Below are positions 3,680 to 35,746 of a stretch of DNA of 64,000 nt, piece by piece. The position numbers were made by a program, and so were the translations under genes. The stretch is from an uncultured Bdellovibrionales bacterium (lineage in GTDB: Bacteria; Pseudomonadota; Alphaproteobacteria; Micavibrionales; GCA-2720935). The stretch lies in assembly GCA_964351525.1 (NCBI GenBank), contig CAYGOD010000001.1:78534-142533 (forward strand), in the 5' to 3' direction. The notes under the pieces were generated by a model. The model was not told the DNA's origin and searched no databases. It worked only from the letters and a program-made list of their open reading frames with translations. Each line of letters opens with the position of its first letter. The first letter of the stretch is position 1.

Positions 3680-3927
3680 AGCTTATTGTTACTCTTCTTC
3701 TTTAGGGGTGTGAAACAATTTGCATGCATGCCATAAATTTTATGAATATCTTTTTCAGCACTTGACCCAGATAATATAATAACGGGAATACGTTTTAATG
3801 TTGGCTCTTCTTCGTCGTCTCTTGCGACAGAAATATTATTAACCAATTTAGAATGTTTAAATGATTGTTTGACAGGAATGACATCGGTTTGATTATCTTC
3901 CACGAGAAGGGTTTTTACGGGCTTCAC
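3541..3927 (-). pseudogene. Degenerate response-regulator receiver (internal deletion of the phospho-acceptor region, probable 3' frameshift)
   Basis: The N-terminus (LLVEDNQTDV…VARDDEEE) and the distal part (LKRIPVIILSGSSAEKDI…HANCF) resemble a CheY-like receiver. About 35-40 aa including the DLxLLDLxxP acceptor-Asp segment are missing. The reading frame then runs 138 nt into the convergent SDR gene, while another frame stops at 3691-3693. Confidence 0.5.
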
Positions 3928-3932
3928 TTAAT

Positions 3933-8184: not shown

Positions 8185-8208
8185 TCCGATGAATAAGACG
8201 TAACACAA

Positions 8209-8238
8209 AGCCCCTATTGTCACGATAGGGGCTTTTTA
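8209..8238 (+). terminator. Rho-independent terminator after the OM barrel gene
   Basis: AGCCCCTAT-tgtcacg-ATAGGGGCT followed by TTTTTATTT. Confidence 0.75.
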
Positions 8239-8295
8239 TTTGATAAATTCTATTGCGGCGCGTTCATCAAACGTCTATAAAATAATTGATTATGC

Positions 8296-8383
8296 GGGGA
8301 GGTGGCTGAGTGGTTTAAGGCGCACGCCTGGAAAGCGTGTGGGGTGCAAGCCCTCGAGAGTTCGAATCTCTTCCTCTCCGCCA
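8296..8383 (+). tRNA. tRNA-Ser (anticodon GGA), long variable arm, encoded CCA
   Basis: Acceptor stem GGGGAGG/CCTCTCC (one G-U pair). D-arm GCTGAGTGGTTTAAGGC. Anticodon stem-loop CACGC-CTGGAAA-GCGTG. There is a long variable arm, a T-arm GAGAGTTCGAATCTCTT, and a terminal GCCA. Confidence 0.9.
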
Positions 8384-8421
8384 TTATCTTTTATCCATTA
8401 AAATCAATGGTTTGACAGTGC

Positions 8422-8444
8422 AAAAAGCCCGCTAAAACGGGGCT
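8422..8444 (-). terminator. Weak intrinsic terminator for the 8559-9518 gene
   Basis: On the minus strand, AGCCCC-g-TTTTAG-c-GGGCT is followed by TTTTT. The stem is only 5-6 bp. Confidence 0.35.
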
Positions 8445-8558
8445 TTCGGGGGGGGATTCGAACCTCGAATATTAGGCTAATCGTCGATAGTTGCCCTTTT
8501 CTGAGAGAATAGGCTTTTTCTCTCTGTTTGCGCATTTCGGCAGTGTCATTGAATAGCT

Positions 8559-9518
8559 TTATTCCCAATGAGTAATACTCATTTTATTTGGAACTGCAAC
8601 ATGAAATGATCTCGTAGCGCCGTCGCCAGCATATCCTAGTTGCCAGCCATCAAACTTGCCATCTTCACTTTTTGACCATTTTTTTTGTATAGAGCCATAA
8701 ATACCTGAATTTGAATCCTTGATCATCTCCTCATCCATCTCAATATTCCATTTAGTGCTTTTAAATGGGTGATCTTCATCAAATGTATAGAGTGGAAGAC
8801 GAGTTAGTTTAATTGCTGTATCTCTAAAGATCTTGGTACATGGTATAATATCGTTGTTTTGGTTTACTGCATCTATGCTTTCAAGATAATTTGACAGTTC
8901 TATTGAAGATAGTGATATATATGTCAAAATTTCCCATAGAATTGATGTAATAGAAATTATCTTTTTACCATTACTATGAAGTATATGATGCGGTGCAGCT
9001 TGCCCGTTTTTATAACCTTCAACAAAAAAGCCTAATAAGAAGATGGTGGCCCCATCATGATGAAAATCTGTTTCAAATAGTCTTATGCGCCCATGATTAT
9101 GTTTTATTGTGTTGGTGTAGTTTGATATTTCATCTCTTAATGGTTTAAGGTTCCTTTTTAAAGAACGCAAACTTTTATCTTTTGATGCAGAGAAATTATT
9201 TTTAAAAAATGTTTTGGCCACAGTTTCTATATCATCATTATGCTCTGCTGCTGCGTATAAAGAAAGCTCCAAATAGTCAATAATCTCATCTTTTATAGCT
9301 TGATCTTTTGGCGTATCAATCCAGTGCTGTTCTAACTTATCTGCACATTTTTTTACCTTATCACAAATACGAGATAATGAGAGGTTATACACTCCGAGAG
9401 GATGACGCAGATCTCTTATTTCATGGTAAGATGCCATGGCTTTTAAGCTAGCTAAAGCCTTAATTGCTGGCAAACAATTTCCAGTATCCTCAGGATCAAT
9501 TTTTATTTCGGGTTTCAT
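8559..9518 (-). CDS. Hypothetical protein (no recognisable domain), first gene of the accessory region
   Basis: A 319-aa ORF with a terminator downstream. No motif recognised. Confidence 0.5.
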   Translation of the reverse strand: MKPEIKIDPEDTGNCLPAIKALASLKAMASYHEIRDLRHPLGVYNLSLSRICDKVKKCADKLEQHWIDTPKDQAIKDEIIDYLELSLYAAAEHNDDIETVAKTFFKNNFSASKDKSLRSLKRNLKPLRDEISNYTNTIKHNHGRIRLFETDFHHDGATIFLLGFFVEGYKNGQAAPHHILHSNGKKIISITSILWEILTYISLSSIELSNYLESIDAVNQNNDIIPCTKIFRDTAIKLTRLPLYTFDEDHPFKSTKWNIEMDEEMIKDSNSGIYGSIQKKWSKSEDGKFDGWQLGYAGDGATRSFHVAVPNKMSITHWE

Positions 9519-9571
9519 TATTTAAGGTTCTTTTAAAATTCATATAATATTTAAGAGTAACCTGCCTCGTA

Positions 9572-11170
9572 TCAGAAACCAAAGGTTTCTTTTTGTTCAG
9601 ACCATGAAAGCGGTATGTTGCCCAACATCAAGCGGGCAAGGATAAGGGTATCAGGCTGACGTCCTTCTAAAATGGCGGTCTGAATTTCTGGCGCAAGGAA
9701 AATAAGGTTATAAATTTGGCGTACATAGCCTCGGCGCATATTTTCAGAATCTGCAACTTCTTTAAATGAATTCACTTCACCACTTTTAAGCATGCGATTC
9801 CACTTATGGGCGCGAATAAGCGCTTTGATTAGCGCAGGATCTTTTTTGGTTGTCGTAGGCTTTAGGTCTTTGCCGTTTTCATCAAGTATAAGTTTTTTAC
9901 CGCCATACTTTCTAAATCCTGCAGGCAGATCATATTCTTGTAATGGGCCCTGAGCTGTTTTGATAACTATGCGGATTTTATCTGTAAAAATAACAACTTT
10001 TTCAATCAGCCCCTTTAAAACGGCACGTTTATCCAAATAGGTTTTGTCGTTCCAATTCTTCAATAATATTTTCTGCTCCTCATCCTCTATGTTTTTGTTC
10101 AGCTGATCCAATACAACGGCTTCGAGATCTTTTTGCGGGACGCGTGGGACGTCTGCTTTTTGCGCTCCTTCTTTAATAGCAACTTGGCTGATGTAATAAT
10201 GGTGATAGCACCGTGTTCCATCTTTGAGCTTTTTACCACTATAGCCTGGTGAATAAGCTCGACCTTCAACATCAAAGACCATTCCCTTTAATAGAATGTG
10301 TGATCTATGATGATTACTCTCTTTTTTAGTGTTGTTTTTTGAAAGCTTGGTTTGAACAGCATCCCACAATTCTTGATCGATGATAGCCTCATGCAAGCCA
10401 TCATATAATGTGCCCTTGTGATGTGTTTTACCGAGCAAAAGCGGATTATTAAGAAGCTTTGATAAATAGCCGCGATCAAAATAGCTTCCACCACGTTTAT
10501 GTCCTTTTTCAGTTGTCCAACGTTTATTGATAATGCCTTGCTCGCGCAAATGATCAATGAACGTAATGATAGATTTAGCCTTTAAATAACCGTCAAATAT
10601 ATAGCGTACTTGTTTGGCTTCGGGTTCGTTAATAACGAGGTGGCGATTTTTAATGTCATAGCCCAGCGGCGGCGTGCCGCCCATCCACATACCCTTCTTT
10701 TTACTAGCCTCGATTTTATCGCGGATACGTTCGCTTGTGACTTCCCGTTCAAACTGAGCAAAAGACAAAAGCATATTGAGCGTCAATCGCCCCATCGAAT
10801 CTTTAGTGTTAAAACTCTGCGTGACAGACACAAAGGTCACGCCATGTTCGTCAAACAGTTCAACCAGTTTGGCAAAATCATGTAAGGACCGAGATAGCCG
10901 ATCAACCTTATAAACGACTACTACGTCAATCAATTTTTTCTTAATATCGGCGAGCAATGCTTTCAGAGCTGGACGACCCATATTGCCACCGGAAAAGCCG
11001 CCGTCATTATACTGCTTTTTAACGACACTCCAACCTTCTGATTTTTGGCTTTTGATATATGCCTCGCCAGATTCACGCTGTGCATCGAGTGAATTAAAAT
11101 CCTGCTCCATGCCATTTTCAGATGACTTGCGGGCATAGATGGCACAGCGTATATTTTTATCATTCTTCAT
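9572..11170 (-). CDS. Large serine recombinase (resolvase/invertase N-domain + recombinase domain + zinc-ribbon region)
   Basis: Contains CAIYARKSS (catalytic Ser), LDAQRE, DGGFSG, VVVYKVDRLSRSL and SFAQFERE. The ATG at 11170 (MKNDKN…) is preferred over the GTG at 11182, because it gives the same box-to-ATG spacing as the two related genes. Confidence 0.9.
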   Translation of the reverse strand: MKNDKNIRCAIYARKSSENGMEQDFNSLDAQRESGEAYIKSQKSEGWSVVKKQYNDGGFSGGNMGRPALKALLADIKKKLIDVVVVYKVDRLSRSLHDFAKLVELFDEHGVTFVSVTQSFNTKDSMGRLTLNMLLSFAQFEREVTSERIRDKIEASKKKGMWMGGTPPLGYDIKNRHLVINEPEAKQVRYIFDGYLKAKSIITFIDHLREQGIINKRWTTEKGHKRGGSYFDRGYLSKLLNNPLLLGKTHHKGTLYDGLHEAIIDQELWDAVQTKLSKNNTKKESNHHRSHILLKGMVFDVEGRAYSPGYSGKKLKDGTRCYHHYYISQVAIKEGAQKADVPRVPQKDLEAVVLDQLNKNIEDEEQKILLKNWNDKTYLDKRAVLKGLIEKVVIFTDKIRIVIKTAQGPLQEYDLPAGFRKYGGKKLILDENGKDLKPTTTKKDPALIKALIRAHKWNRMLKSGEVNSFKEVADSENMRRGYVRQIYNLIFLAPEIQTAILEGRQPDTLILARLMLGNIPLSWSEQKETFGF

Positions 11171-11180
11171 AACACCATAC

Positions 11181-11207
11181 ACGCTTCCTTTAGCGCGGAA
11201 GTCCAGT
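11181..11207 (-). promoter_or_regulatory. 27-nt conserved leader box, copy A (ACGCTT-N12-AAGTCCAGT on + strand)
   Basis: The same flanks, 27-nt length and 10-nt distance to the ATG occur at 12340-12366 and 26734-26760. Confidence 0.5.
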
Positions 11208-11220
11208 TATATTAACGAGC

Positions 11221-11895
11221 ATGGAACAAAAGAATAAAAAGCAAAAAACAGCACAAGATCTATATGATGGCCTAGTTATCATTGCCGAGAATATTTGTGC
11301 TGAAATTAAATGGGCATACGTCAATTATGAGATTCTTGACGCATGCAATCAAAAAAAGATTACCGATAAGTTTACAAACACATATTCAGGTAATGTATGG
11401 GCTGTTCTACGTAGAAGCTTGCTAAATGAAACTCTTTTAGCTTTGTCTAAAGTTATTATAGATAAAAAGAATAAACCGTCTTCTTTCCACGCCTTGCATG
11501 AGCTTTTGAAGAAAGAAGAAGTAATAGAGCTGGTAAAGTTAAATTACACGCAAGCTGAAGATGCGTTTGATGATCGTCTTCAAGACTTGTTGGAAGGCTT
11601 ATCTTCTTTAGATGAATTTTTGAAAAATCATGATGCTTTCAAAAGCTTAGCCGCCCACCGCAATAACTATCTGGTACACAGGTCACAGAAAGTTTCTAAA
11701 TCTGTCAGAAACTTTCAATGGGGAGATGAAAAAACATTAATCAGTATTGTTGCTGATATAATGCACCCTATGGAACTTATGATTTTGAATGGTGGAAACA
11801 TTTCTAATTCAACTAGGTCTGTTTACAGAGCATATGCTAAAAACTTCTGGGATAGCATCGAACCAGATGATGCAAGGTTTAAATATACAGACTAA
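11221..11895 (+). CDS. Putative HEPN-domain protein, AbiU2-like (abortive-infection family)
   Basis: All-alpha-looking 224-aa protein with an R-x5-H motif (AAH-R147-NNYLV-H153-RS) in the C-terminal half, as in HEPN Rx4-6H nucleases. The general layout is remembered from AbiU2. No search was run. Confidence 0.4.
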   Translation: MEQKNKKQKTAQDLYDGLVIIAENICAEIKWAYVNYEILDACNQKKITDKFTNTYSGNVWAVLRRSLLNETLLALSKVIIDKKNKPSSFHALHELLKKEEVIELVKLNYTQAEDAFDDRLQDLLEGLSSLDEFLKNHDAFKSLAAHRNNYLVHRSQKVSKSVRNFQWGDEKTLISIVADIMHPMELMILNGGNISNSTRSVYRAYAKNFWDSIEPDDARFKYTD

Positions 11896-12329
11896 TTTCT
11901 CTTATCTTTCCTTAAGCCAAAAAATAAGGGCCCCGACCAATGAGATCCTGTGATTTCTTTAGCAATGGTTGTAAGGCTTGTATATTCACAACCGTTATAC
12001 TCCAGCCTTTTCTTATCATGGACATAGACGATATAGGTCTGTCCATTCCATTCCCGCTTTAGGATCGTTTTTGATGGGAGTTCGTGTTTCTTGATCGGCG
12101 CTTTAACTTCACCGCTGATAAGTCGATTGAGCTTTGTACGCGTACGCGCAGGCAATCCGCCACACGCTTTTTCCTGCACATGCCACGCGATATGGCGCAT
12201 GATCAAATCACGGCTAGATGGCTTTTCTTTATTGCCAAAACAATCAGCCCAAAGCGTGTGCAACGTTTTCTTGTCAGTTGTTTTTAGCATATTTAAGTCA
12301 GATAATATATGGCCCTGCATCTTCTTCAT
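11892..12329 (-). CDS. DUF2924 domain protein (recombinase-associated)
   Basis: Contains LWADCFG…SRDLIMRHIAWHVQEKACGGL…LKREWNGQTY…YTSLTTIAKEITGSHWSGPLFFGLR, which matches the remembered DUF2924 consensus well. Confidence 0.8.
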   Translation of the reverse strand: MKKMQGHILSDLNMLKTTDKKTLHTLWADCFGNKEKPSSRDLIMRHIAWHVQEKACGGLPARTRTKLNRLISGEVKAPIKKHELPSKTILKREWNGQTYIVYVHDKKRLEYNGCEYTSLTTIAKEITGSHWSGPLFFGLRKDKRN

Positions 12330-12339
12330 GAAGACAGTA

Positions 12340-12366
12340 ACGCTTCCTTAGAGCACGAAGTCCAGT
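12340..12366 (-). promoter_or_regulatory. 27-nt conserved leader box, copy B
   Basis: Sequence ACGCTT-CCTTAGAGCACG-AAGTCCAGT, lying 10 nt from the DUF2924 ATG. Confidence 0.5.
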
Positions 12367-12396
12367 CAATTAGTCACCTAAATTAAATGATTAAGA

Positions 12397-13200
12397 TTAG
12401 TTAATTTTCACTGCAAACGGTGCAAAGACCTGCTTTCCATCAATTTGAACCTGGGCGAATAGCTTTAAATACCCCGCTTGTTCCGGTTCAATATGAAAAC
12501 GCAAGGTTGGGCCACCACGTTCGGTGTCTTCAGTTGGTTCTGCGCCCATAGGGTGAATATGCGCGATAGTTTCATAATCTTCATAAAAGCCAACCATGTG
12601 CGCAAAAGCCCCCATGACAGGCTCAAGGACGTTTACGGCTTGCCCATCTTTGGAAATACTCACAGTGCTCATAACAGATTCTCCAGCCTTTAAGTCACCC
12701 TCCAATTCAAGCTTAAAGTCATACCCTTGTGATGAAGACTCGAAGCTCACTGTTTTATCAATTGGCTCTCTGCATTCTGCCGCGCCTTTTAAATCAACAG
12801 GTACATATTGTTGGTCTGATCCTTTAAGTTGAACATCCACCCAAATACGATAAGAGCAAGTAGTTTGTGGTGTAAAATTAAAAGCATATTGCCCAGTTGA
12901 TGTTTGAGTTGGATGTTCATGGTGATAATCATTCAATTCAGGGTCAATGATTAATAGGTGAACGGGTTTTGTATGAACAACCTTAAACTGCGACACATCC
13001 ACTGGCTGTGCTTGTTTATCTTGAACAAACAAAACAAGCGCATTTTCCTCTCCAGCTTTCAATTCAGCTGGCGTGATAGGCGTGATAATAAGTTGAGCCT
13101 CTGAATGGTTATGTCCGTCATGATCGTGTCCAGGTCCTGCCCATGTGGGCTGAATAAACGCGACTAGTATAAAAATTGTAGTGAAAATATGCTTTAACAT
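12397..13200 (-). CDS. Secreted His-rich putative metal-binding protein
   Basis: Signal peptide followed by AGPGHDHDGHNH. Internal HHEHP and AHIHPMG motifs. It is the last gene of the czc-type operon and overlaps the czcD-like gene by 7 nt. Confidence 0.5.
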   Translation of the reverse strand: MLKHIFTTIFILVAFIQPTWAGPGHDHDGHNHSEAQLIITPITPAELKAGEENALVLFVQDKQAQPVDVSQFKVVHTKPVHLLIIDPELNDYHHEHPTQTSTGQYAFNFTPQTTCSYRIWVDVQLKGSDQQYVPVDLKGAAECREPIDKTVSFESSSQGYDFKLELEGDLKAGESVMSTVSISKDGQAVNVLEPVMGAFAHMVGFYEDYETIAHIHPMGAEPTEDTERGGPTLRFHIEPEQAGYLKLFAQVQIDGKQVFAPFAVKIN

Positions 13201-14114
13201 TGTTGAGTTTCCTTCCTTTGGTTATTCATTTCAAAACATTTTTGATGTTCAAATTCCAATGTTGAGTGGTCGATGGAAAAACGATCTTTGAGTATTTGTT
13301 TCAGCTCTCGCTTGACCTCATCCATTCGGCCTTGATCGTCTATCACGACATGCGCTTCTAGAGCGTTGCGATTTTCATCCAGTTGCCAGATATGAACATG
13401 GTGCACATTCTGAACGCCTGCTTGTGTTTCCATGCTTGAAATTACATCTTCAATCGCTATGCCTTTCGGCGTTCCTTCCATAAGCAAGTGAATGACTTTC
13501 GGAATCTCGTGCAGTCCGTGATATAAAACATATCCGGCAATCAACAACGTCATTGCAGCATCCGTCCAAACCCAACCATAAAGTAAAATCAGTGTTCCGG
13601 CGATAATTACGCCAACCGAGGCAAGCGCATCCGTCAAGTTATGCAGAAATGCCGCCCGCATATTCATGCTATTTTTGGATTGACTATAGGTCAAAAAGGC
13701 CGTGAACAAATCAACTACTAAAGCTATTCCAGCAACAATAACAATCGTCCATCCGGCAATGGGTTCTGGTGTAATAAAACGCATAATTGCTTCATAGCAA
13801 AGATAGAGTCCGATAATGATCAAAGTGATCAGGTTAATAAAGGCCGCTATAGTTTCGGCGCGTTTATAACCAAATGTTTTGAATTGATCCGGCGGTTTGC
13901 GGCCAATACGAATTGCAATCAAAGCAATAAGCAGAGAAGCCGCATCGCTAAAATTATGTAGGGCATCGGCAATCAACGATAAACTGCCAGAAATTATGCC
14001 GCCGATCACTTGCGCCAGTGTGAGCAGTATGTTCGCACCCACCGCCCACCATAGGCATTTTTCGCCTATTTCAGATGGATCTCCATGGTGATGATGGTGC
14101 TGTCCGTGTCCCAT
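13194..14114 (-). CDS. czcD: Cation diffusion facilitator (CDF) metal efflux transporter
   Basis: N-terminal His tract (GHGQHHHHHG) and six TM helices. CDF signature around LIADALHNFSDA and HNLTDALASVG. A C-terminal cytoplasmic domain is present. Confidence 0.85.
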   Translation of the reverse strand: MGHGQHHHHHGDPSEIGEKCLWWAVGANILLTLAQVIGGIISGSLSLIADALHNFSDAASLLIALIAIRIGRKPPDQFKTFGYKRAETIAAFINLITLIIIGLYLCYEAIMRFITPEPIAGWTIVIVAGIALVVDLFTAFLTYSQSKNSMNMRAAFLHNLTDALASVGVIIAGTLILLYGWVWTDAAMTLLIAGYVLYHGLHEIPKVIHLLMEGTPKGIAIEDVISSMETQAGVQNVHHVHIWQLDENRNALEAHVVIDDQGRMDEVKRELKQILKDRFSIDHSTLEFEHQKCFEMNNQRKETQQC

Positions 14115-14117
14115 AAT

Positions 14118-14846
14118 TTACCCTATGTATTGTGATAGTATCCAGAAAGACATTGCTATCATCATTAAATTTTCAGTTAAGGATACAAAACCAAGTGGCA
14201 CGTTGCTATTCCCACCAACACATGCACATTTTAGTTCGCGTTTATCAACATAAACCGCTTTAAAAACAGAAATTGCGCCGACCGTTCCGATAAACAGGGC
14301 TGCGGGTGCGGAAATGATAGTGAGAAATCCCGAAATCATCGCCACGCCCGCGAGTGTTTCAATGAAGGGATAAACGTAGCCATACTTGACCCACCTTTGA
14401 GCCAGAAGATCGTAATTCAAAAATTGTAAGCTAAACGCTTCTAAGTCTCTTAACTTTTGGATACCCAATACGCACATGCTAATAGCAATAAAAAGCTCAA
14501 TCATTCTAATGATATTCAGCTCACCAATGGCCCATGCCGTTGAGAGGGCCATAAGGAAAGTCGTGGCGAAAATTGCGATAATGGGTTTGTAGGTCGTGCC
14601 TTCCTGTTTTTTTCCGAAAAATTCTTTCAGATCATCATATCCACCGATACGTTCTCCATCAATGAAAGTTTGCGGCGTTGTCTTTACATCATGCTTTTGT
14701 TTAAACACATCTGTTTCTTCGCGGCTGGTCAGATGATTATCTTCAACCTCGTATCCTTGAGCTTTTAAAAGATCGAGTGATTTTAAACCATACGGGCATA
14801 TATGCTTATCCATGACCATGCGGTAGAGTTCGGCTTTTTTTGTCAT
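14118..14846 (-). CDS. Glutaredoxin-like domain fused to MauE/DoxX-type membrane domain
   Basis: The N-terminus (CPYGLK…TPQTFIDGERIGGYDDL) is glutaredoxin-like. The C-terminus has four or more TM helices and a CAC motif. The ATG at 14846 has a good SD (AAGGAGAT); the track extension to 14924 would overlap czcA. Confidence 0.6.
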   Translation of the reverse strand: MTKKAELYRMVMDKHICPYGLKSLDLLKAQGYEVEDNHLTSREETDVFKQKHDVKTTPQTFIDGERIGGYDDLKEFFGKKQEGTTYKPIIAIFATTFLMALSTAWAIGELNIIRMIELFIAISMCVLGIQKLRDLEAFSLQFLNYDLLAQRWVKYGYVYPFIETLAGVAMISGFLTIISAPAALFIGTVGAISVFKAVYVDKRELKCACVGGNSNVPLGFVSLTENLMMIAMSFWILSQYIG

Positions 14847-14865
14847 TTTAAAAAATCTCCTTTTT

Positions 14866-18000: not shown

Positions 18001-18014
18001 ATCTAATTCCTCCC

Positions 18015-19031: not shown

Positions 19032-19036
19032 GATTT

Positions 19037-20260: not shown

Positions 20261-20346
20261 TGTTATTTCCGTTTTTAAATGTTCATAGAAAAACGCAGCC
20301 CTAAACAGAGCTGACGCAAAATGCAGGCACAATTAGCCTGCGAACA

Positions 20347-20691
20347 TTAAATACGGGGTGGGCGACGCAATGCCGAGTGCTTGAAAGAATTATGATTATC
20401 AGAAGAAACTAAAATAAACGGCACGTTGACATTCATAGGTGTTTTTAAAGGGGCATTAAAAGTTGTAATTGTTTGAGAATGAACACAGCAACAATCAGTA
20501 CATGAACCTTGCTCTTGATTTTCATCCTGATTGTGGCTCTGCCCTGAGTGGCAAGGTTCGCTATCTGTTTTGTTGTGTTGCTCCATTTGATAATGATCAC
20601 ATGCATGGTCAGCAACATAAGCATGTGCTAAATCGGAAAAACCTCCGACAACGAACATAAATAAAAATATGCATAAGGTGAAAACTTTCAT
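20347..20691 (-). CDS. Small secreted Cys/His-rich protein (first gene of the czc-type operon)
   Basis: Signal peptide followed by a mature part rich in His, Cys, Asp and Gln (DHACDH, CHSGQSH, SCTDCCCVH). It occupies the position of small czcI-like periplasmic proteins, but no homology was established. Confidence 0.4.
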   Translation of the reverse strand: MKVFTLCIFLFMFVVGGFSDLAHAYVADHACDHYQMEQHNKTDSEPCHSGQSHNQDENQEQGSCTDCCCVHSQTITTFNAPLKTPMNVNVPFILVSSDNHNSFKHSALRRPPRI

Positions 20692-20775
20692 GATTCGAGG
20701 ATAGGCTCTTTTTCTGCTTAATCAAGAAAATAATTTAATAAGCTAACTACGAGGAGAAATTTTACAAAGATTAGC

Positions 20776-21180
20776 TTATTTATCTTTATTTTGATCGTCT
20801 ACCCCATATATCGGAGGCATAGGCTCAACTGGCCCATAAGGCGGTCTAATGATAATAGTAGGTCTCTGCATTGATTGCTCAACGGGAGAGGCTTTTTCAA
20901 GATATTGCATTACAGTTTTTAAAGCCTGCATATTGCCTTTCAAGCTCTCGCTGTAAAGCTTGTTAATAAGGGCTTCCTTTAGTTCTATCTGTTCTTTCCT
21001 TCCACCTTTGTTAATTGTGACAAGTTGTTTGGACACTTCGAGAAAAGTATCCCAAAATTTCTTTTCTTTTTGTGCATTAGTTGGGCGCCCATTTTGATTG
21101 CCAGATTGTCCTTTTTGAAACTGCGTTGATTTTGGCGGTCTGCCGTAGCCCACTTCATAGTCATCGTTATTATCCGTCAT
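20776..21180 (-). CDS. DUF5681-like protein
   Basis: The motif GYGRPPKSTQFQKGQSGNQNGRP matches the remembered DUF5681 N-terminal signature. The ATG at 21180 overlaps the upstream gene's end by 11 nt. Confidence 0.55.
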   Translation of the reverse strand: MTDNNDDYEVGYGRPPKSTQFQKGQSGNQNGRPTNAQKEKKFWDTFLEVSKQLVTINKGGRKEQIELKEALINKLYSESLKGNMQALKTVMQYLEKASPVEQSMQRPTIIIRPPYGPVEPMPPIYGVDDQNKDK

Positions 21181-22483
21181 GGTGCTCTCCCTTCTTTTGA
21201 TCAAAGGTTTGTCCATCTTCGTGAACTGCAACTTTTAAAGTTTCTTCCTTGTAGCGTTGGATGATCACATCGACATATTTAGGATCAAGCTCGATTAATC
21301 TCGCCTTACGCCCAGCTCGTTCAGCAGCGATTAATGAGCTGCCACTGCCGCCAAATACATCGAGAACAATATCACCACGTTTAGTGCAATCGAGGATAGC
21401 ATCTTCAATCATGATAACTGGTTTCACTGTAGGATGAAGCTCAAGATCTTTGTTGTTTTGGAATGTATTCACACCTGCATAGTCCCACACATTGGTGCGA
21501 TAACGCCCATGCTTGCCAAGTTCTACATTGTTGATATGAGGTTCTGTTCCATTTTTATAAACAAACACCAATTCATGTTTAGATCGGTATAGCGAACCCA
21601 TACCGCCATTGGTTTTGTTCCATATGCATAAATTCTTGAAATCATCATAAATCTCGCCGGCCTTGGTGATTTCTTTGATGTGACGCCAATCCATACAGAT
21701 ATAATGGAGTGAACCATTAATGGAATATTCCTTGAGATTCTGAAATGCGGTTTTCAAGAACCGTGTGAATTCTTCTTCTGACATCTCACCCGATGCCATT
21801 TTGAATTCATCATGTTTGACTTTGCCATTCCCACAAATGTGACCGTTTACAGGCACATTATAGGGTGGGTCTGTAAAAATGGCTTGGGCCCGTTCAGATT
21901 CCATCAAGCGTTCGTAAGATTCTGACTTGGTGGCATCACCACAATACAAAATATGTTCTCCCAGATACCACAGATCGCCTAATTGACTCACTGGGTTATT
22001 TGGAAGATTCAGAATTGATGGTTCTTCTGGCGATGCTTGATTACCCATCATAAAACCATCAATCTCAGCAATTTCAAAGCCAGTGAGCGTTAAATCAAGG
22101 TCGAGATCAAGGTCAGCAATGGTCTGAATTTCTGACTGTAGGATTTCAAAGTCCCAGCCAGCGTTTTCAGCGAGTTTATTATCAGCGATGATATAGGCGC
22201 GCTTCTGCGCTTCGGTTAAATGCCTCAGATAGATAATAGGTACTTGATGAATTCCAACAAGCTTAGCCGCTTCAAGGCGTCCATGACCAGCAATAATAGT
22301 ATGATCTGCATCAATCAGAATGGGGTTGGTAAACCCAAACTCGTGCATACTATCGGCGATTTGCTGAATTTGCTTTTTTGAATGCGTACGTGCATTGCTT
22401 TTAAAGGGTTTAAGGTCACTAGATTTTAAATAATGGATTTGTAAGTTTTGCCCAAGATGGGCAAAAGCATCTGCTTTTTGCAT
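21170..22483 (-). CDS. ParB-like N-terminal domain fused to N6/N4 DNA methyltransferase
   Basis: ParB-N blocks (NARTHSKKQIQQIADSMHEFGFTNPILID, IIAGHGRLEAA). Methyltransferase motif IV IFTDPPYNV and AdoMet motif VLDVFGGSGSSLIAAE. Confidence 0.85.
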   Translation of the reverse strand: MQKADAFAHLGQNLQIHYLKSSDLKPFKSNARTHSKKQIQQIADSMHEFGFTNPILIDADHTIIAGHGRLEAAKLVGIHQVPIIYLRHLTEAQKRAYIIADNKLAENAGWDFEILQSEIQTIADLDLDLDLTLTGFEIAEIDGFMMGNQASPEEPSILNLPNNPVSQLGDLWYLGEHILYCGDATKSESYERLMESERAQAIFTDPPYNVPVNGHICGNGKVKHDEFKMASGEMSEEEFTRFLKTAFQNLKEYSINGSLHYICMDWRHIKEITKAGEIYDDFKNLCIWNKTNGGMGSLYRSKHELVFVYKNGTEPHINNVELGKHGRYRTNVWDYAGVNTFQNNKDLELHPTVKPVIMIEDAILDCTKRGDIVLDVFGGSGSSLIAAERAGRKARLIELDPKYVDVIIQRYKEETLKVAVHEDGQTFDQKKGEHHDG

Positions 22484-22661
22484 GATAAGTCTCCTAGGAA
22501 AAATAGTTTTCCATTTTAATGTTTAAGGGGATGACCAAGAGGTGCCTTAGGCTCTCAAGGATGGTCCCCTTGGGACTCATCAATGTCTGAAAATAAAAAC
22601 GTCGTTAACGCTTTCAAAGTATATTTTATTCTAAATAAATCCTGCAGTCAATAAATTGATC

Positions 22662-23153
22662 TTATGATTTACAAAGCTCGTTCCATATTTTTGCAAAATC
22701 ATCAACTTCATCTTCAAAAAAAGTAAGTTCTGGCGATCCGGACACAAAGTATTTATAACCAACATACCCGCCATATGCATTTTTTGAATTGACCTGACCG
22801 CAGACTACATGCGTGCCACTAGCTTTACTATAAAACACATTTTTAAACTGTGCAGATGATGCATCTTTTAATCGTGATCGCACATAATCTTTTGTATTCC
22901 AAATGAAGATATCCTGTTTGTTTTTATCAAGCAGATAATCCTGTTTCTCTTGAGTAGAGGCTGCTTTATATTCATCTTCGTGCAGTTTTGCCGAAATGCT
23001 CCCAAAGACAAGAAGTACAATAAAAACCGAGAGCAACCCTAGAGCTATTTTTGAGATAATTGAAACAGGATCACGTTTCTCTGCACAATTGATGCACGTA
23101 ATAGTACTTTTACTAACGCCTTGATTACATTTCTTACATTTGGGTAATGCCAT
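22662..23153 (-). CDS. Zinc-ribbon / single-TM protein with extracytoplasmic domain, unknown function
   Basis: MALPKCKKCNQGVSKSTITCINC (CxxC…CxxC), then a TM helix, then a domain of about 100 aa. The ATG at 23153 has a GGGAG SD 8 nt upstream. The track's longer start runs into the structured element. Confidence 0.5.
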   Translation of the reverse strand: MALPKCKKCNQGVSKSTITCINCAEKRDPVSIISKIALGLLSVFIVLLVFGSISAKLHEDEYKAASTQEKQDYLLDKNKQDIFIWNTKDYVRSRLKDASSAQFKNVFYSKASGTHVVCGQVNSKNAYGGYVGYKYFVSGSPELTFFEDEVDDFAKIWNELCKS

Positions 23154-23170
23154 CTTACAACTCCCGTTAA

Positions 23171-23380
23171 TGTTAAAAGTCACCAGGCGCTTATCGCTCT
23201 GGTGACCGGGAGTTTGTAAGTTGCAATTACACAACCGCGACGATCTTTAGACCGGGGTCTTGGACATACATCGCCGCCTCCCGATCGTAAGAGATCGAAA
23301 GGCGACATCATGACGGCGATATCAGCCGGTAATTGCAGGGTTACAAAGCCCCGGCGAATACGCAAAACCGTATTCACAGC
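23171..23380 (-). ncRNA. Candidate structured RNA or cis-regulatory leader (four-way junction + intrinsic terminator), family not recognised
   Basis: A locally GC-rich island in AT-rich DNA. A 21-bp interrupted closing helix (23329-23354 with 23206-23231) encloses three hairpins, including a 12-bp helix at 23275-23304. There is a 5' hairpin at 23356-23375. The 3' hairpin GTCACCAG/CTGGTGAC is followed by UUUU on the minus strand. Several G-U pairs exist only in the minus-sense transcript. Confidence 0.45.
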
Positions 23381-23408
23381 CATACGTTATCTCTAATAGC
23401 ATTTTGTA

Positions 23409-24158
23409 TCAAGGAGAAAGATAGTTTTGGAAAAGATCGTAAAAGCCTATAACCGCTTGGGTTAAAGCATATGATGTTGTTATTAAAACTGCTAATCCGC
23501 CAACGAAACTGATAATGTTTTTTATTTTTGGAGCCGTTCGGTCCCAAAATGCAGTTTTAGGGCTTCCCAATATTAGAAGATGCCTTTTATTTTTTGATAA
23601 CCACCAATCGTGCGCGTAATGTTCTTCGTATACTTGAAACAAGCTGCTTTTGCTTAGCACTCTCTCGTTTATCGTGAGCGTAGAATTTTTTTCGTAAGAA
23701 AACCCATTACTTTTTCCTGACCATACACCACTAATATTGGAGATGTAATATAGAGCATCTAATAAGCTTGCCCCTTCGTATTTTGACTGCGCGATAATTT
23801 CTTCAACCGTAACGCCTTCTTTAAGTTTACTTGGATACATTTCTTTCAAAATATTAAAACACTCCTCCATAACCTCAATAAGGTTTTCCGATTTTTTAGA
23901 CTTTATAAGTGGAGGGGCATACGGTGAAAATCGATAAAAATTATGAGATTTATCATGTTCAATCCATCGTTCTGTATGATCTAGTTGATCTAGAGTATCC
24001 ATTTCGTCGGCATGTTGGGCGCGATATTTACTTTTATCAACTTGCGGCGGGATTCCTTGTAATGCGCTAAAAACATTTCGAAGGCACTGAACTTTCTCAG
24101 GACCTAAAACTTTAATCGCTTTTTTAATTTGCGTCTGATAGGTTTTTCTTACACTCAA
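23409..24158 (-). CDS. Hypothetical protein with C-terminal TM anchor
   Basis: A 249-aa ORF with a C-terminal hydrophobic helix (IISFVGGLAVLITTSYALTQAVIGF). No domain recognised. Confidence 0.5.
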   Translation of the reverse strand: MSVRKTYQTQIKKAIKVLGPEKVQCLRNVFSALQGIPPQVDKSKYRAQHADEMDTLDQLDHTERWIEHDKSHNFYRFSPYAPPLIKSKKSENLIEVMEECFNILKEMYPSKLKEGVTVEEIIAQSKYEGASLLDALYYISNISGVWSGKSNGFSYEKNSTLTINERVLSKSSLFQVYEEHYAHDWWLSKNKRHLLILGSPKTAFWDRTAPKIKNIISFVGGLAVLITTSYALTQAVIGFYDLFQNYLSP

Positions 24159-24170
24159 TATTTTGTCCTA

Positions 24171-24554
24171 TTAAACCGACCAACGAGCTTCTTGTTCTTC
24201 ATCTTCATCTTCATCTTCATCTTTAGCAGCGTCCTTTCGCAATCCTAACTGCTGAATCATTGTTTGTGTCCAGAATCGAACTTGTTTGATTGGATGGTCT
24301 TCTAGATCTTTAAGTGGGAGCTCATAGAGCGCGTAATATGTTGTTCTGGATCCGCTCCATCCATAAGTTCCGATATTTCTTGCAATACCATCTAGAACAT
24401 CTTTTCTGTCACCAAAACTATCGAGCAATCTGCGCATGATAGGATGAAGTGTTCTTACAGCATCTTCAGGGTTTTGAGATGTTAAAACTGGCACAACAAC
24501 AGCAACAAAAGCTGGAGCAACATCCGGGTGACCATTTTGGTCACAAATAAACAA
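24171..24554 (-). CDS. Hypothetical protein, possibly a 5'-truncated remnant
   Basis: A 127-aa ORF with only a TTG start and no visible SD. It has an acidic DEDEDEDEEQE tail and reads like the C-terminal piece of a larger helical-repeat protein. Confidence 0.3.
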   Translation of the reverse strand: MFICDQNGHPDVAPAFVAVVVPVLTSQNPEDAVRTLHPIMRRLLDSFGDRKDVLDGIARNIGTYGWSGSRTTYYALYELPLKDLEDHPIKQVRFWTQTMIQQLGLRKDAAKDEDEDEDEEQEARWSV

Positions 24555-24680
24555 TGGGGTTTGCTTTATTTACGGCTCTGCGTAAAGTAGTTTTATGGCC
24601 GATTTCACGGTTGCACAAAAAATGATTGATAGAATCAATTATGCCTTACAGAATATATTATACATTACGTAGATATTTTC

Positions 24681-25210
24681 TTTCCCTGATATTTCCCTGT
24701 TAATTGTTGGTCATATAACGGTGCCTTTGTCGTAACTTATTGTTTTGCAATAGGTTACAAGCTCTTAAATGTCCGTACTATTAAATATTACTAAAATTTT
24801 CCCTGTAAATTCCCTGTTTAACAGGGAATTTGCTATGATCGTTTAGTGCTATTGAAAAGCACTACACCGCCATACAGTCTTGCGTTTTTCCAAAAATAGA
24901 TATTTATCGTCCATGCCCGCGCTGTTTGCGGGCTTTCTAATATACGTCTTTAAAAGCCCTCATTGAGAATTGCTGAATAAAGCCAAATTATACCCATTCT
25001 CTCTTGGCCCTATATAGGCGAGGGCTCTTGCACAGTGTTTCAGGGTTTTAACACATTCAAATGACTTCTTAATTCCCTGCTAACAGGGAATTTTACAGGG
25101 AATTTTCTATTTTTCTAAAGCAAAAAAGCACCATAATGAAGCTGTTAGCAGTGTGAGCCTGGTTTCATGATGAATGACTCATTATATAATGCCAAATTAA
25201 CAGGGAATTT
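24681..25210. repeat. Array of nine A(A/T)TTCCCTGT(T/A)A motifs in both orientations (iteron/operator-like)
   Basis: Forward copies lie near 24682, 24693, 24799, 24810 and 25073. Reverse copies lie near 24821, 25083, 25095 and 25199. There is a perfect 25-bp palindrome AAATTCCCTGTT-T-AACAGGGAATTT at 24807-24831 and a second palindrome at 25071-25092. Tandem copies are spaced 11 bp apart. Confidence 0.8.
24915..24938 (+). terminator. Intrinsic-terminator-like hairpin inside the non-coding stretch
   Basis: GCCCGC-gctgttt-GCGGGC followed by TTTCT. No ORF lies upstream of it. Confidence 0.35.
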
Positions 25211-26723
25211 AAAGACGAATTAGTGTTTCAAAACTATCAATGATTGATTGATGTATATGATTTTTACTATGTGAGCCTTGCTTTGCAATATCAACCAAGC
25301 TTTCACCGTCGAAATGACGCGCTCTCCAAGAGATGCCCTTTACTACCCGTTTTAATAAATCTGCGTTCTCGTGACTAAATAGATCAAGTTTTTCTTGGTT
25401 GTCTGGTTTCTTTAATATGATAGCGTTTCTAGATTGTGTAAAAATATAATCGTATATGATGCATTCTGTTTCTGCGTATTTATCTTCATGACTCAAAACA
25501 TCTTTCCAAGAATAAGAAACTTTAATGTGAGAATGGCTTAGTGTTACACGTTGAATGTATCTCTGAATAACATCGGTATGTGTGTGGGGTCTCATATTGT
25601 CTGATGAAGAACTAAAAGCTAGTTTATCTATTGATACTTTGCTTAATTGTTCTTTGAGTTTTTCAGTTATAAAATCTTCAATTTGTTTTGCTGTGATGCG
25701 CGCGATAAGACCTTTGGGGTGATCTTTATATTGAAGTAGGTTCTGAGATATATAATAGCGATATTGCTTGGTCTTACCGTTCTTGGTTTTTTTAACAGTA
25801 TATGTTGGGCTGTACGGTGTACCATCAGGATCAAAGAGCAAGCCTTGTAACATATATTTAGATTGTGTCGTTTGCTTTCTAGCCGTAGCGTTCTCTGTTA
25901 ATAGTGTCTGTGCTTTGTTCCATGTTTCTTCATCAATGATTGCGTTGTGCAGACCCTCATAGATTTTATCTTTATGTGTTATCTTGCCGATATAAGCTTG
26001 GTTCTTCAAAATCTTATAAAGGCTTCCTCTGCTATAATATTTGTTACCATGCGTTCGTCCTTTCTGTGATGTCCGTATGGGGCTTTTTATGTTGTCTTGT
26101 TCGAGTGATGCCTTTAGCTCTTTGACTGATCTATATTCGAGATACCGTTTAAATATAAGTTCAGCTATTGGTGCCTCATCTTTATTAATCGCTAACTGCC
26201 TATTATCGATTGAATAACCAAGTGGTGCGGATCCACCCATCCACATGCCCTTAGCTTTACTTGCAGCAATTTTATCTCTGATACGCTCGCCTGTGACTTC
26301 ACGTTCAAATTGAGCAAAGGACAGTAAGACGTTAAGCGTTAATCGTCCCATCGATGTTGTTGTGTTAAAGCTTTGTGTGACGCTGACAAAGGTAACGCCG
26401 TATTCGTCAAAGACTTCTACCAGTTTTGAAAAGTCGGCCAATGACCGTGTTAGTCTATCAATCTTATATACAACTACGATGTTAGCCTTATAGGTCTTAA
26501 TGTCTTCTATAAGCCGATCTAAGGCTGGTCGCTCTAATGATCCCCCCGAATACCCACCGTCATCATAATGGACCTTGCTGGGTGACCAGCCTTCAGATTT
26601 TTGGCTTAAGATATAAGCCTCACATGCCTCACGTTGTGCGTCCAATGTATTGAAGGTCATGTCAAGGCGTTCATCTGTCGATTTACGGGTATATATGGCA
26701 CATATTTTTTTAGCATTCGTCAT
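25209..26723 (-). CDS. Large serine recombinase (paralogue of 9572-11170)
   Basis: Contains CAIYTRKST, LDAQRE, DGGYSG, VVVYKIDRLTRSL and SFAQFERE. The N-terminal ~200 aa are clearly alignable by eye with the first recombinase; the C-terminus differs. Confidence 0.9.
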   Translation of the reverse strand: MTNAKKICAIYTRKSTDERLDMTFNTLDAQREACEAYILSQKSEGWSPSKVHYDDGGYSGGSLERPALDRLIEDIKTYKANIVVVYKIDRLTRSLADFSKLVEVFDEYGVTFVSVTQSFNTTTSMGRLTLNVLLSFAQFEREVTGERIRDKIAASKAKGMWMGGSAPLGYSIDNRQLAINKDEAPIAELIFKRYLEYRSVKELKASLEQDNIKSPIRTSQKGRTHGNKYYSRGSLYKILKNQAYIGKITHKDKIYEGLHNAIIDEETWNKAQTLLTENATARKQTTQSKYMLQGLLFDPDGTPYSPTYTVKKTKNGKTKQYRYYISQNLLQYKDHPKGLIARITAKQIEDFITEKLKEQLSKVSIDKLAFSSSSDNMRPHTHTDVIQRYIQRVTLSHSHIKVSYSWKDVLSHEDKYAETECIIYDYIFTQSRNAIILKKPDNQEKLDLFSHENADLLKRVVKGISWRARHFDGESLVDIAKQGSHSKNHIHQSIIDSFETLIRL

Positions 26724-26733
26724 GCTTACAGTA

Positions 26734-26760
26734 ACGCTTGGCGTGACCGCTAAGTCCAGT
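26734..26760 (-). promoter_or_regulatory. 27-nt conserved leader box, copy C
   Basis: Sequence ACGCTT-GGCGTGACCGCT-AAGTCCAGT, lying 10 nt from the recombinase ATG. Its central 12 nt differ from copies A and B but can still form a hairpin. Confidence 0.5.
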
Positions 26761-26867
26761 CATATAGCTATAAATCGCCACATTTTTTTTTGCATAACAA
26801 TTGACAGCCTGCTTGAAAGCTTTTAATCATGATAATATCAAACATAAAATAAAGAGGACTTAAAATC

Positions 26868-29896: not shown

Positions 29897-29906
29897 GATG
29901 GATCTC

Positions 29907-31727: not shown

Positions 31728-31731
31728 TATT

Positions 31732-35709: not shown

Positions 35710-35746
35710 TTGACGTAGTGCGATTTTTTTGACGTAGTGCGATTTT
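35710..35746. repeat. Tandem direct repeat 2 x TTGACGTAGTGCGATTTT (19-bp period) upstream of pmbA
   Basis: Read directly: 35710-35727 and 35729-35746. Confidence 0.85.

Follow-up and report, generated by a model that had tools for sequence, protein, structure and literature searches.

How does an accessory gene island come to abut the 3' end of a tRNA gene when no tyrosine integrase accompanies it? The question is raised by a stretch of 64,000 nucleotides (hereafter the window) from contig CAYGOD010000001.1 of an uncultured alphaproteobacterium, in which the tRNA-Ser(GGA) gene at 8296-8383 on the plus strand is directly followed by accessory genes and by two paralogous large serine recombinases (SRs), here called SR1 and SR2. 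Judged from sequence comparison, the region from 8384 to about 26780 is probably a composite island: two elements would have integrated one after the other at the 3' end of tRNA-Ser(GGA), each by means of a recombinase of the same clade. The initial annotation had proposed an accessory island abutting the tRNA 3' end and accreted in tandem from two serine-recombinase elements, and this part holds; the boundary that it placed between the elements, at about 12370, does not, and we place it at 24872/24873, between an SR1-driven element (E_new) and an SR2-driven one (E_old).

Serine recombinases of a tRNA-associated clade

The tRNA-Ser(GGA) gene, which scores 54 bits against the Rfam tRNA family, is the only tRNA that ARAGORN finds in the window. 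We propose that it was the integration target and that its 3' end, CCGCCA (8378-8383), forms the left junction (attL) of the island. Nearly all open reading frames (ORFs) between 8559 and 26723 lie on the minus strand, among them SR1 (9572-11170, 532 aa from its ATG) and SR2 (25209-26723, 504 aa), which match the Pfam domains Resolvase (2.3e-39 and 1.8e-36, respectively) and Recombinase (1.8e-13 and 2.4e-16). Domain scans with Pfam, PHROGs, NCBIfam and PADLOC covered the 21 ORFs of at least 80 aa, smaller ORFs being outside the scan. No tyrosine integrase, relaxase, type IV secretion system or replication family was matched among these ORFs, in line with the absences reported in the initial annotation, and the genes that it had named, i.e. 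the tRNA, the two paralogous recombinases, DUF2924, AbiU2, the czc/CDF block, DUF5681 and the ParB-methyltransferase, were all recovered by ARAGORN and Pfam. Of the genes expected in an integrative and conjugative element (ICE) or an integrative and mobilizable element (IME), relaxase, coupling protein and type IV secretion genes were not found among the scanned ORFs (oriT was outside the search). Capsid, tail, terminase and lysis genes were not found either, the PHROG matches being limited to methyltransferase/ParB, DUF2924, DUF5681 and families without function.

Both recombinase ORFs are intact and retain the catalytic serine motif (AIYARKSS in SR1, AIYTRKST in SR2). The two proteins are 52% identical over the first 362 aa, and at the DNA level the genes resemble each other at an offset of 15,556 nt. 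Structural matches are restricted to the catalytic and recombinase domains: for SR2 these are the catalytic domain of TP901-1 (4.6e-23) and the recombinase domain of A118 (4kis, 3.7e-5, SR2 residues 166-331). Neither protein has a Pfam Zn_ribbon_recom match, and the four zinc-ribbon cysteines are absent though the surrounding motif is conserved; the equivalent stretch without cysteine pairs reads GLLFDPDGTPYSP...YRYYISQ in SR2 and GMVFDVEGRAYSP...YHHYYISQ in SR1, and is a possible zinc-free equivalent of the ribbon domain.

We collected 80 viral and 80 metagenome loci encoding relatives of these recombinases; related loci carry L numbers below, L176-L180 lying on TARA metagenome scaffolds and L021 on a viral contig. 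The closest annotated relatives are the serine recombinases of the Acidithiobacillus phage AcaML1 (48.6% identity to SR2), of Ralstonia phages and of Wolbachia phage WO, while full-length relatives of SR2 are encoded in L096-L101 (47-54% identity) and by P0182 (71%). The gene upstream of the recombinase in most relatives, and in an Agarilytica plasmid, encodes a DUF2924 protein, which is the usual first gene product of the recombinase operon. AcaML1, whose attB is reported to lie in ssrA, with repeats of 10 bp (PMC3826726), has a 148-aa ORF (Gp4) in this place, the family of Gp4 not being confirmed. DUF2924 corresponds in part to the RAMA DNA-binding domain (PMC11342252), to which we also obtained a weak match. 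A search for DUF2924 by name returned just three papers, each of them about Wolbachia; the box and the site arrays described below were not searched for directly.

With the loci oriented so that the recombinase is on the plus strand, nearly every tRNA found is on the minus strand just past the recombinase stop codon. In 30 metagenome loci the sequence continues for at least 1.5 kb past this codon; 11 of them have a convergent tRNA within 1.5 kb, compared with none of 28 controls. These tRNAs are mostly 176-400 nt past the stop codon and are specific for Ser (GGA, CGA, GCT, TGA), Tyr, Gln, Lys and Ala. Zero to six nucleotides after the encoded CCA of any of them there is a conserved motif, (T)AAGTnnnTGATAT in many loci and TTTAGTCT in SR2-type loci; since it is the same whichever tRNA precedes it, it is derived from the element. 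SR1 has the geometry of its clade towards tRNA-Ser(GGA), with one additional gene, ORF319, in between. Because the clade is found convergent with tRNA genes and SR1 is positioned in the same way, the "missing" integrase of the island is the serine recombinase. The puzzle of a tRNA island lacking a tyrosine integrase, implicit in the initial annotation, thus dissolves: the recombinase clade is itself associated with tRNA genes.

In five cargo-less, high-GC relatives (L126, L134, L138, L145 and L154) a tRNA-Met-like 3' half, from CTCATAA to CCA, was seen about 75-110 nt upstream of the box, and L138 has an intact tRNA-Ser(CGA) at the recombinase end despite the tRNA-Met-like half at its far end. 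These halves are either a fossil tRNA half carried by the element or tandem sites. L111 contains at 3909-3977 a second copy, 94% identical, of the 5' 69 nt of its tRNA-Ser(GCT), the last 21 nt being missing; it is located 375 nt past the intact tRNA that adjoins the recombinase.

The backbone of E_new is continuous across position 12370

L176 and L177 contain, contiguously, genes for a ParB-methyltransferase, DUF5681, the box, DUF2924, a 532-aa recombinase and ORF319, the methyltransferase gene of L177 ending at the contig edge. Between the window and L176 the proteins are 84% (ParB-methyltransferase), 92.5% (DUF2924), 90.6% (recombinase, to SR1) and 88% (ORF319) identical, and BLASTN yields three collinear blocks with 82-85% nucleotide identity: L176 5675-7483 with window 22892-21083, 7862-8342 with 12377-11896, and 8362-11142 with 11158-8375. 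The corresponding window genes are all on the minus strand: ParB-methyltransferase at 21170-22483 (Pfam ParB_N and N6_N4_Mtase; phrog_498, 2.8e-129), DUF5681 at 20776-21231 (Pfam), DUF2924 at 11892-12329 (PF11149, 1.8e-34) and ORF319 at 8559-9518, a backbone gene between the tRNA and SR1 that is kept in relatives. ORF319 has no match in Pfam, PHROGs, NCBIfam or PADLOC; its 58 homologues are mainly alphaproteobacterial, and a copy with 88% identity lies 3' of the recombinase gene in L176-L180. The order ParB-methyltransferase, DUF5681, box, DUF2924, recombinase recurs in L100, L096, L109, L161, L043 and L022. Upstream of the methyltransferase we looked for genes common to the relatives and found none; the likeness of the distal part of E_new to L176 extends as far as window position 23389.

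On the tRNA side the backbone ends in the element-side arm (P') of E_new, 8384-8558 on the plus strand and directly 3' of the tRNA, with a GCCCGC...GGGGC hairpin, then a T run, and a T-arm-like stretch. The arm is collinear with the sequence 3' of ORF319 in L176 and L178 (local alignment z 43; 85% nucleotide identity). It opens with TTATCTTTT, as does the sequence after tRNA-Ser(GCT) in L111; from 8384 the left edge of E_new reads TTATCTTTTATCC, and the tRNA end before it ...CTCTCCGCCA. Within the arm, at 8452-8480, a run of eight G residues precedes ATTCGAACCTCGAATATTAGGCTAATCG, which is T-arm-like when read on the opposite strand; from this region, AATATTAGGCT and AATCGTCGA are also present in L097, inverted relative to the tRNA, and L176 keeps cgattagcctaatatt.

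Since the backbone of L176 and L177 runs through 12370 and is collinear with the window on both sides, an element boundary at this point, as initially annotated, has to be given up, and 12377/12378 marks one side of a czc cargo block that was inserted into the SR1 element. A division into elements 8384-12370 and 12370-26765, each with a box at its upstream edge, had some appeal: in the cargo-less relatives L099 and L138 the box is within about 60-110 nt of the far end, the likeness among many relatives stops just upstream of the box, and the czc block begins 11 nt from box B. We nevertheless regard it as hardly credible, as the methyltransferase and DUF5681 genes are syntenic with the recombinase module in at least seven further loci, 12367-12400 has no tRNA-like arm or CGCCA core, and the tRNA-proximal arm and site array of SR2 at 24873-25207 are on the wrong side of SR2 for the boundary that such a division requires.

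The proposed junction between E_new and E_old

A non-coding stretch of 650 nt downstream of SR2 holds seven of the eight ACAGGGAA motifs of the window. In this stretch we propose the far end of E_new, at 24872, and the tRNA-proximal end of E_old, at 24873, from comparison with related loci. The first array of sites, M (24682-24830), has five TTCCCTG/CAGGGAA sites, arranged as a palindrome plus one site, about 85 nt, and two sites. It is followed by the far-end arm (P) of E_new (24832-24872, plus strand), which resembles the 3' half of a tRNA, contains a T-arm-like hairpin (AGTGC/GCACT) and ends in CCGCCA; reading ...GCACTACACCGCCA at 24872, it is a degenerate tRNA 3' half and not a tRNA. The CCGCCAT at 24867-24873 repeats the tRNA end at 8378-8384. 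This 7-mer is the only recurrence of the tRNA 3' end, of which no repeat of at least 8 nt exists anywhere in the window, in line with the initial annotation, which had seen no direct repeat of this end; long direct repeats of the tRNA end were sought and not found. The M array lies about 37 nt from the core, and the same arrangement is found about 40 nt beyond the TGGCGG core in L021, L110, L153 and L155. The common layout is AGACTnnn, TGGCGG, T-arm-like sequence (about 40 nt) and M array, the window version being AGACTGTA-TGGCGG followed by the T-arm-like sequence and the M array. Of these four loci, the recombinase type was checked for L110, L153 and L155, which match SR1 along its entire length.

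On the other side of the junction, the tRNA-proximal arm (P') of E_old (24873-25070, plus strand) starts with TACAGTCTT and has a GCCCGC...GCGGGC hairpin; no tRNA precedes it now. For an in silico circle of E_old its opening from 24873 is TACAGTCTTGCG. MAFFT places ACACCGCCA, the adjoining TACAGTCTT and the hairpin in the same columns as the tRNA end and the following arm of L097, L099 and L100. Between this arm and the SR2 stop codon is the second array, F (25072-25207), with four TTCCCTG-type sites, in which a 38-nt block matches L097 with two mismatches (z 17-18); the F-array layout, after the recombinase stop codon and before the tRNA, is shared by L096, L097 and L099. L099, an SR2-type mini-element with atpG on one side and tRNA-Tyr on the other, lacks an M array at its far end; the M array is thus assigned to the SR1-type element. 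When window 24791-24872 was joined in silico to 8384-8560, the product was collinear with the contiguous L178 across the joint, the tRNA-side arm giving z 43. The MAFFT columns, the shared M-array layout and the L178 alignment of the joined ends together argue for the junction at 24872/24873.

Two alternatives for the ends of E_new were rejected. The sequence left of the junction in L178 does not represent the true far arm of E_new, as it matches 24832-24866 at 20 of 38 positions compared with 33 of 38 for 35738-35775, and no M array follows it. A crossover in the T-loop, attractive since it could account for the variety of tRNAs targeted, was dismissed on sequence inspection: the 3' part of the far arm is unable to pair with the 5' strand of the tRNA-Ser acceptor.

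The same stretch could also be read as one intact attP of SR2, as the F and M arrays are near-symmetrical around 24950, mirror images around a 240-nt spacer. SR2 would then be a passenger, with an unrecombined attP (24682-25207), in a single SR1-driven element whose true far end is to the right of SR2. The order recombinase stop, arm, TGGCGG, tRNA-like arm, M array is indeed the unrecombined form in L021, L110, L153 and L155, and the junction has no tRNA fragment longer than 7 nt. However, the SR2-type relatives at tRNAs (L097, L099) have the F array only; M arrays occur with the full-length SR1 matches L110, L153 and L155 and in L021; and the DNA to the right of the box upstream of SR2 is shared with no related element and is core-like in composition. 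A passenger role of SR2 is therefore improbable, and we retain the boundary between two elements at 24872/24873.

The short junction repeats (5-7 nt) would be compatible with simple attachment (att) sites, but the conserved TTCCCTG arrays are located 40-200 nt from the proposed cores. Canonical serine integrase att sites are about 40-50 bp long, with a 2-bp crossover and no accessory sites. We infer that the arrays provide accessory sites for protein binding beside the att cores, where the RAMA-like DUF2924 protein or the C-terminal domain of the recombinase might bind. In L120, L148 and L156 the recombinase stop codon is followed by TTCCCTG runs of three to four copies with a spacing of 21-22 nt, about two helical turns, and about 100 nt separate the runs from a further site cluster (in L120, two direct sites and one inverted); this pattern resembles iterons or arm-type sites.

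E_old and the candidate right end of the island

E_old would be a minimal element, extending from 24873 to about 26780 and consisting of the arm, the F array, SR2, as its proposed integrase, and box C. Its far end is expected close to the box, as in the cargo-less relatives L099 and L138 the far end is within about 60-110 nt of it (in L099 within 63 nt). Sixteen nucleotides past box C the sequence ...AAATCGCCA is followed by CATTTTTTTTTGC: a third copy of CGCCA, then a T run, as might follow a tRNA gene. The candidate right end of E_old and of the island is this CGCCA at 26776-26780 (plus strand), up to which the edge reads ...TATAAATCGCCA. The limits of 8384 to about 26765 in the initial annotation are close to ours. 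None of the genes to the right of this end, which include SNase, an NMNAT-like gene and a lipoprotein-like ORF of 131 aa, is common to any related locus.

Mobility, independence and proposed order of the two elements

The E_new backbone is found at a different locus in another sample. In L176 and L178 the tRNA-side arm joins via TGGCGG to a non-tRNA sequence that matches window 35690-35775 with 87% identity (33 of 38 nt, and flanks), so that the same backbone adjoins 35690-35775-like DNA there and tRNA-Ser in the window. In the window this sequence is unoccupied and lies in the intergenic space that separates the start of PmbA from the stop codon of a 1099-aa ORF; it may be an unoccupied secondary attachment site, and the sequence left of the junction in L178 can be read as host DNA at such a site. 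Within the window sequence are a tandem duplication of 19 nt (ttgacgtagtgcgattttt) and a T-loop-like AGTTCGCGTT. Beyond the joined site, L178 has an IS6-type transposase. From the proposed boundaries the model predicts that the far end of the element on TARA scaffold_75 consists of the M array and the tRNA-like arm, followed by GCATTTACTGG.

None of 162 related loci carries two recombinases, which argues for two independent elements rather than for a two-recombinase system. One element with two cooperating recombinases, such as ccrA/ccrB of the staphylococcal cassette chromosomes (SCC), was considered, the genes being paralogues in the same orientation with CcrB, CcrA, CcrC and XisF as the best NCBIfam matches. 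Yet the Ccr scores reach 150 bits against a cut-off of 900, the genes are 14 kb apart and not in one operon, and each has its own box and arm; with the count of 0/162 this makes a cooperating pair very unlikely.

The cargo-less relatives of 2-3 kb show that the module of box, DUF2924, recombinase and arm moves on its own. This bears on whether the block could be an immobile, fixed remnant of a prophage or satellite, with the recombinases and sites as relics. Such a remnant would account for the phage-type genes (ParB-methyltransferase, DUF5681 and DUF2924 with PHROG matches) in the absence of structural, lysis and replication genes, and for a composition that outside the czc block has converged on that of the host, and the relatives do include true prophages. 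Against it, both recombinase ORFs, the three boxes and both arrays are intact, and the 85% identical backbone at another locus and the cargo-less relatives point to mobility; we consider fixation quite unlikely.

For the two integrations we favour the following scheme. E_old would have integrated first at the tRNA-Ser end, regenerating the tRNA 3' end; E_new, driven by SR1, would later have entered the regenerated end and displaced E_old by 16.5 kb from the tRNA, giving the order tRNA, E_new, E_old, flank. The E_new backbone would comprise the arm, ORF319, SR1, DUF2924, the box, DUF5681, the ParB-methyltransferase, variable distal genes, the M array and the tRNA-like far arm, and would have gained two cargoes: a czc/CDF block of 8.7 kb and an antisense AbiU2 cassette of 0.74 kb, with which a second box arrived. 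Strand exchange would take place at or within a few bases of the terminal CCGCCA, between the tRNA-like arm of the circular element and the tRNA end, with the RAMA-like DUF2924 protein as a candidate binder of the TTCCCTG arrays or of the box.

Several observations weigh against two successive integrations. At each of the three proposed junctions the repeat measures no more than 5-7 nt. In pairwise comparison the E_old arm is only weakly similar to its relatives (z 0.1-2.5), so that the argument there rests on position-matched features. The recombinase subtype does not strictly determine how the arrays are oriented towards the recombinase gene, as L120 and L156, nearer to SR1 in length, have F-type arrays. 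The right end is weakly defined, and its position at about 26780 is a guess of low confidence. Except for the czc block, the composition of the island is that of the chromosome. No close relative with an empty tRNA-Ser site was found when the outer-membrane protein of the left flank was searched in the species genomes of the Genome Taxonomy Database (GTDB), and exact-protein look-ups place the same genome only in fragmented Logan contigs of ERR3534985.

A bipartite box upstream of the recombinase operon

The 27-nt box reported in the initial annotation, ACTGGACTT-N12-AAGCGT, is real, with three copies in the window rather than two, all on the minus strand; shuffled sequences lead to an expectation of 0.08 matches. 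Box A (11181-11207) ends 10 nt before the SR1 ATG and is a duplicated copy of the operon leader motif, L176 having no box in this position. Box B (12340-12366), before DUF2924, is the ancestral copy; L176 has an identical box and an identical following sequence up to the ATG. Box C (26734-26760) directly precedes SR2 with no DUF2924 gene between, an arrangement also seen in L096 and at the second box of L100.

Of the metagenome loci 23 of 42 have the motif, and of the viral loci 13 of 80, against two matches in 2.3 Mb of control sequence. It is always on the sense strand, upstream of DUF2924 or of the recombinase, and can be extended to ACTGGACTTC-N11-RAGCGT-N3-TG on the basis of 49 unique copies from AT-rich to GC-rich contigs; the T at motif position 31 is invariant in all 49, though outside the search pattern. 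The box had been taken for the upstream edge of each element. Likeness among relatives is indeed strong downstream of it and mostly absent upstream (1244 vs 89 pairs), but in the prophage relatives the likeness continues upstream, so that the box is inside the element; it is a clade-wide motif before DUF2924 or the recombinase, not an element edge.

Other roles were considered and rejected. An att half-site is at odds with the internal position in prophage relatives and with the lack of an inverted copy on the tRNA side. As to a structured RNA, Rfam yielded no match, whether the gathering threshold or E up to 1 was applied; the 49 unique copies had no consensus structure in RNAalifold, and the hairpin energy averaged -1.9 kcal/mol (z -0.4). 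No sigma-70 consensus match overlaps the box, and for sigma-54 the GG-to-GC spacing, judged by eye, is one base too short. In our own comparison, an extracytoplasmic function (ECF)-like reading GGAC-N17-CGT fits the spacing. Given the lack of RNA structure, Rfam match and sigma-70 fit, and a fixed, non-conserved spacer between two conserved blocks, the box is presumably a protein site at the DNA level, most simply the promoter/operator of the DUF2924-recombinase operon. An ATG is found 13 nt after the box CGT at each of the three window copies, and transcripts from the box would be leaderless or near-leaderless.

Cargo of E_new

The czc block (12378-21082, minus strand, 8.7 kb) takes the place of 379 nt of the L176 backbone. 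It encodes a YtkA-like protein, a CDF transporter (13194-14114; Pfam Cation_efflux and ZT_dimer), a MauE/DoxX-glutaredoxin protein, a czcA-like RND pump (14866-18000; Pfam ACR_tran, 891 bits), a membrane fusion protein (18015-19031; Pfam HlyD_D23) and an outer-membrane factor (19037-20332; Pfam OEP), and also holds a Cys/His-rich 114-aa ORF and the substituted 3' part of the DUF5681 gene. That a single operon encodes the pump, the membrane fusion protein and the outer-membrane factor, and that a CDF transporter gene is close by, agrees with heavy-metal RND efflux systems of the Czc/Cus type, and the block is predicted to be metal-efflux cargo. The 114-aa ORF (20347-20691), directly upstream of the outer-membrane factor gene, has a CTDCCC motif and a weak match to the CopL family of metal-binding regulators (E 0.005).

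As the initial annotation had suspected, the czc block is richer in GC than its surroundings (0.427 vs 0.393 for the remaining window; tetranucleotide z 4.8). It is also the sole deviant part of the island: all other segments, the recombinase modules and phage-like genes included, are indistinguishable from the flanks, so that composition sets apart this cargo and not the island as a whole. Because the end of the DUF5681 gene is replaced and the composition is foreign, the block was probably gained via recombination inside DUF5681 with another element.

The second cargo, 0.74 kb long (11159-11895), takes the place of 20 nt of the L176 backbone and consists of box A and, on the plus strand, an HEPN_AbiU2 gene (11221-11895; PF18734, 51.3 bits vs a gathering cut-off of 26.8), which has no specific match to a PADLOC system. 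This gene, antisense between DUF2924 and SR1, is predicted to be phage-defence cargo. The same slot, DUF2924, antisense gene, second box and recombinase, is occupied in L100 by a gene for an HNH_5 protein and in L096 by a 127-aa ORF.

The distal part of E_new has three ORFs of 190, 249 and 127 aa (22662-24554, minus strand). The PHROGs matches of the 190-aa ORF are limited to families without assigned function. The 127-aa ORF (24171-24554), with a TTG start and an acidic tail, matches the C-terminal 120 aa of the 1283-aa PD-Lambda-4_A model (PADLOC, E 1.2e-7) and might represent a piece of a defence protein or one of its domains standing alone. Where the window has these unassigned ORFs, L176 (1-5400) encodes an OLD-family TOPRIM/AAA_15 nuclease, HTH_17, HATPase_c_3, a C5 DNA methylase and an acetyltransferase; the element family of E_new and L176 appears to carry defence genes.

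Relation to known integrative elements

By type, this is a genomic island that owes its mobility to large serine recombinases and forms a tandem array beside a tRNA gene; judged by its Ccr scores and the scanned ORFs, it is not an SCC cassette, a prophage, an ICE or an IME. Tandem arrays at tRNA genes are familiar from tyrosine integrases, and few have been described for serine integrases. Of other serine recombinases, that of the filamentous Ralstonia phage phiRSM is reported to use a tRNA-Ser gene as attB; this enzyme is small and resolvase-like, and DUF2924, the box and the arrays are not part of the report on it. Elements with serine integrases such as those of phiC31, Bxb1, A118, TP901-1 and AcaML1 share with the island the resolvase and recombinase domains, a recombinase gene at one end and very short junction repeats. 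The SR1/SR2 clade differs from them in lacking the zinc-ribbon cysteines and in having a DUF2924/RAMA partner, the leader box and site arrays. It also sits at tRNA and tmRNA genes, a trait known only for tyrosine integrases according to the Islander paper, in which serine integrases are not known to target tRNA genes (PMC4383910). The Paracoccus phage Pami6 is reported to have a serine recombinase and an attB in tRNA-Met (PMC6536676); DUF2924, the box and the arrays are not described in that report.

Islands of the Islander/TIGER type likewise start at the exact tRNA 3' end, have a tRNA-proximal integrase, carry metal-resistance or phage-defence cargo and form tandem arrays. Here the enzyme is a serine recombinase, the displaced fragment is 5-7 nt long, and the far arm is a degenerate mimic of a tRNA 3' half, not an exact copy. 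Of the features in the Islander definition, the intact tRNA at one end is present (it ends at 8383, the element starting at 8384); a displaced fragment in the form of a repeat of 8 nt or longer, and a tyrosine integrase among the ORFs of at least 80 aa, are absent. The SCCmec elements with CcrAB or CcrC are also non-conjugative, non-phage cargo moved to one site by large serine recombinases, and tandem composites of them are known. The island differs from them in its best Ccr score (150 vs 900 bits), in its target, a tRNA end and not rlmH/orfX, and in that its two recombinases belong to separate elements. What is new are the features of the clade: targeting of tRNA ends, a cysteine-free C-terminal domain, the DUF2924 partner, the leader box, the site arrays and a slot for antisense cargo.

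These results resolve what looked like a paradox, an island next to a tRNA gene but with no tyrosine integrase. Island finders that seek a tyrosine integrase and a long displaced tRNA fragment would overlook such elements, in which a compact self-moving module of about 2-3 kb (box, DUF2924, recombinase, arm) carries metal-resistance and anti-phage cargo; the module is found in alphaproteobacteria that have not been cultured, and numerous contigs from soil and sea have it too. More tentatively, and with considerable doubt, the DUF2924-linked recombinases without zinc-ribbon cysteines might form a family dedicated to tRNA and tmRNA ends, with complex, lambda-like attachment regions. One arm would be the mimic of a tRNA 3' half, and the TTCCCTG arrays would be arm-type sites bound by DUF2924 or by the C-terminal domain of the recombinase. 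The bipartite box next to attP might couple recombinase expression to the state of integration, and its duplicated copy might mark a slot between DUF2924 and the recombinase that captures antisense defence genes (AbiU2, HNH). If the arrays and DUF2924 prove to be accessory factors, this would be a serine-integrase system with built-in architectural control, which bears on how directionality evolves and on the choice of integrases for genome engineering with natural, conserved tRNA landing sites.

Sequences flanking the island

The best named relatives of TldD, encoded in the right flank, are at most 63% identical and come from metagenome-assembled genomes of Micavibrio, Rickettsiales and Rhodospirillales; the GTDB relatives of the left-flank outer-membrane protein are at most 56% identical, and their loci are not syntenic. 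The Logan contigs of ERR3534985 end in the anticodon stem of the tRNA (end of L001, window about 8340) and 30 nt into SR2 (start of L094, 26694). The break at about 8340 could stem from sequence common to tRNA genes, and either break could stem from population heterogeneity at the island ends. Just to the right of the island, a run of co-oriented NAD-related genes (28022-32457), not shared by any related element, forms an unusual pair: it encodes a 624-aa NMN/NaMN adenylyltransferase-like protein and a 606-aa fusion of NAD synthase with a 2OG-Fe(II) oxygenase/PhyH domain, together with an Asp/Glu racemase.

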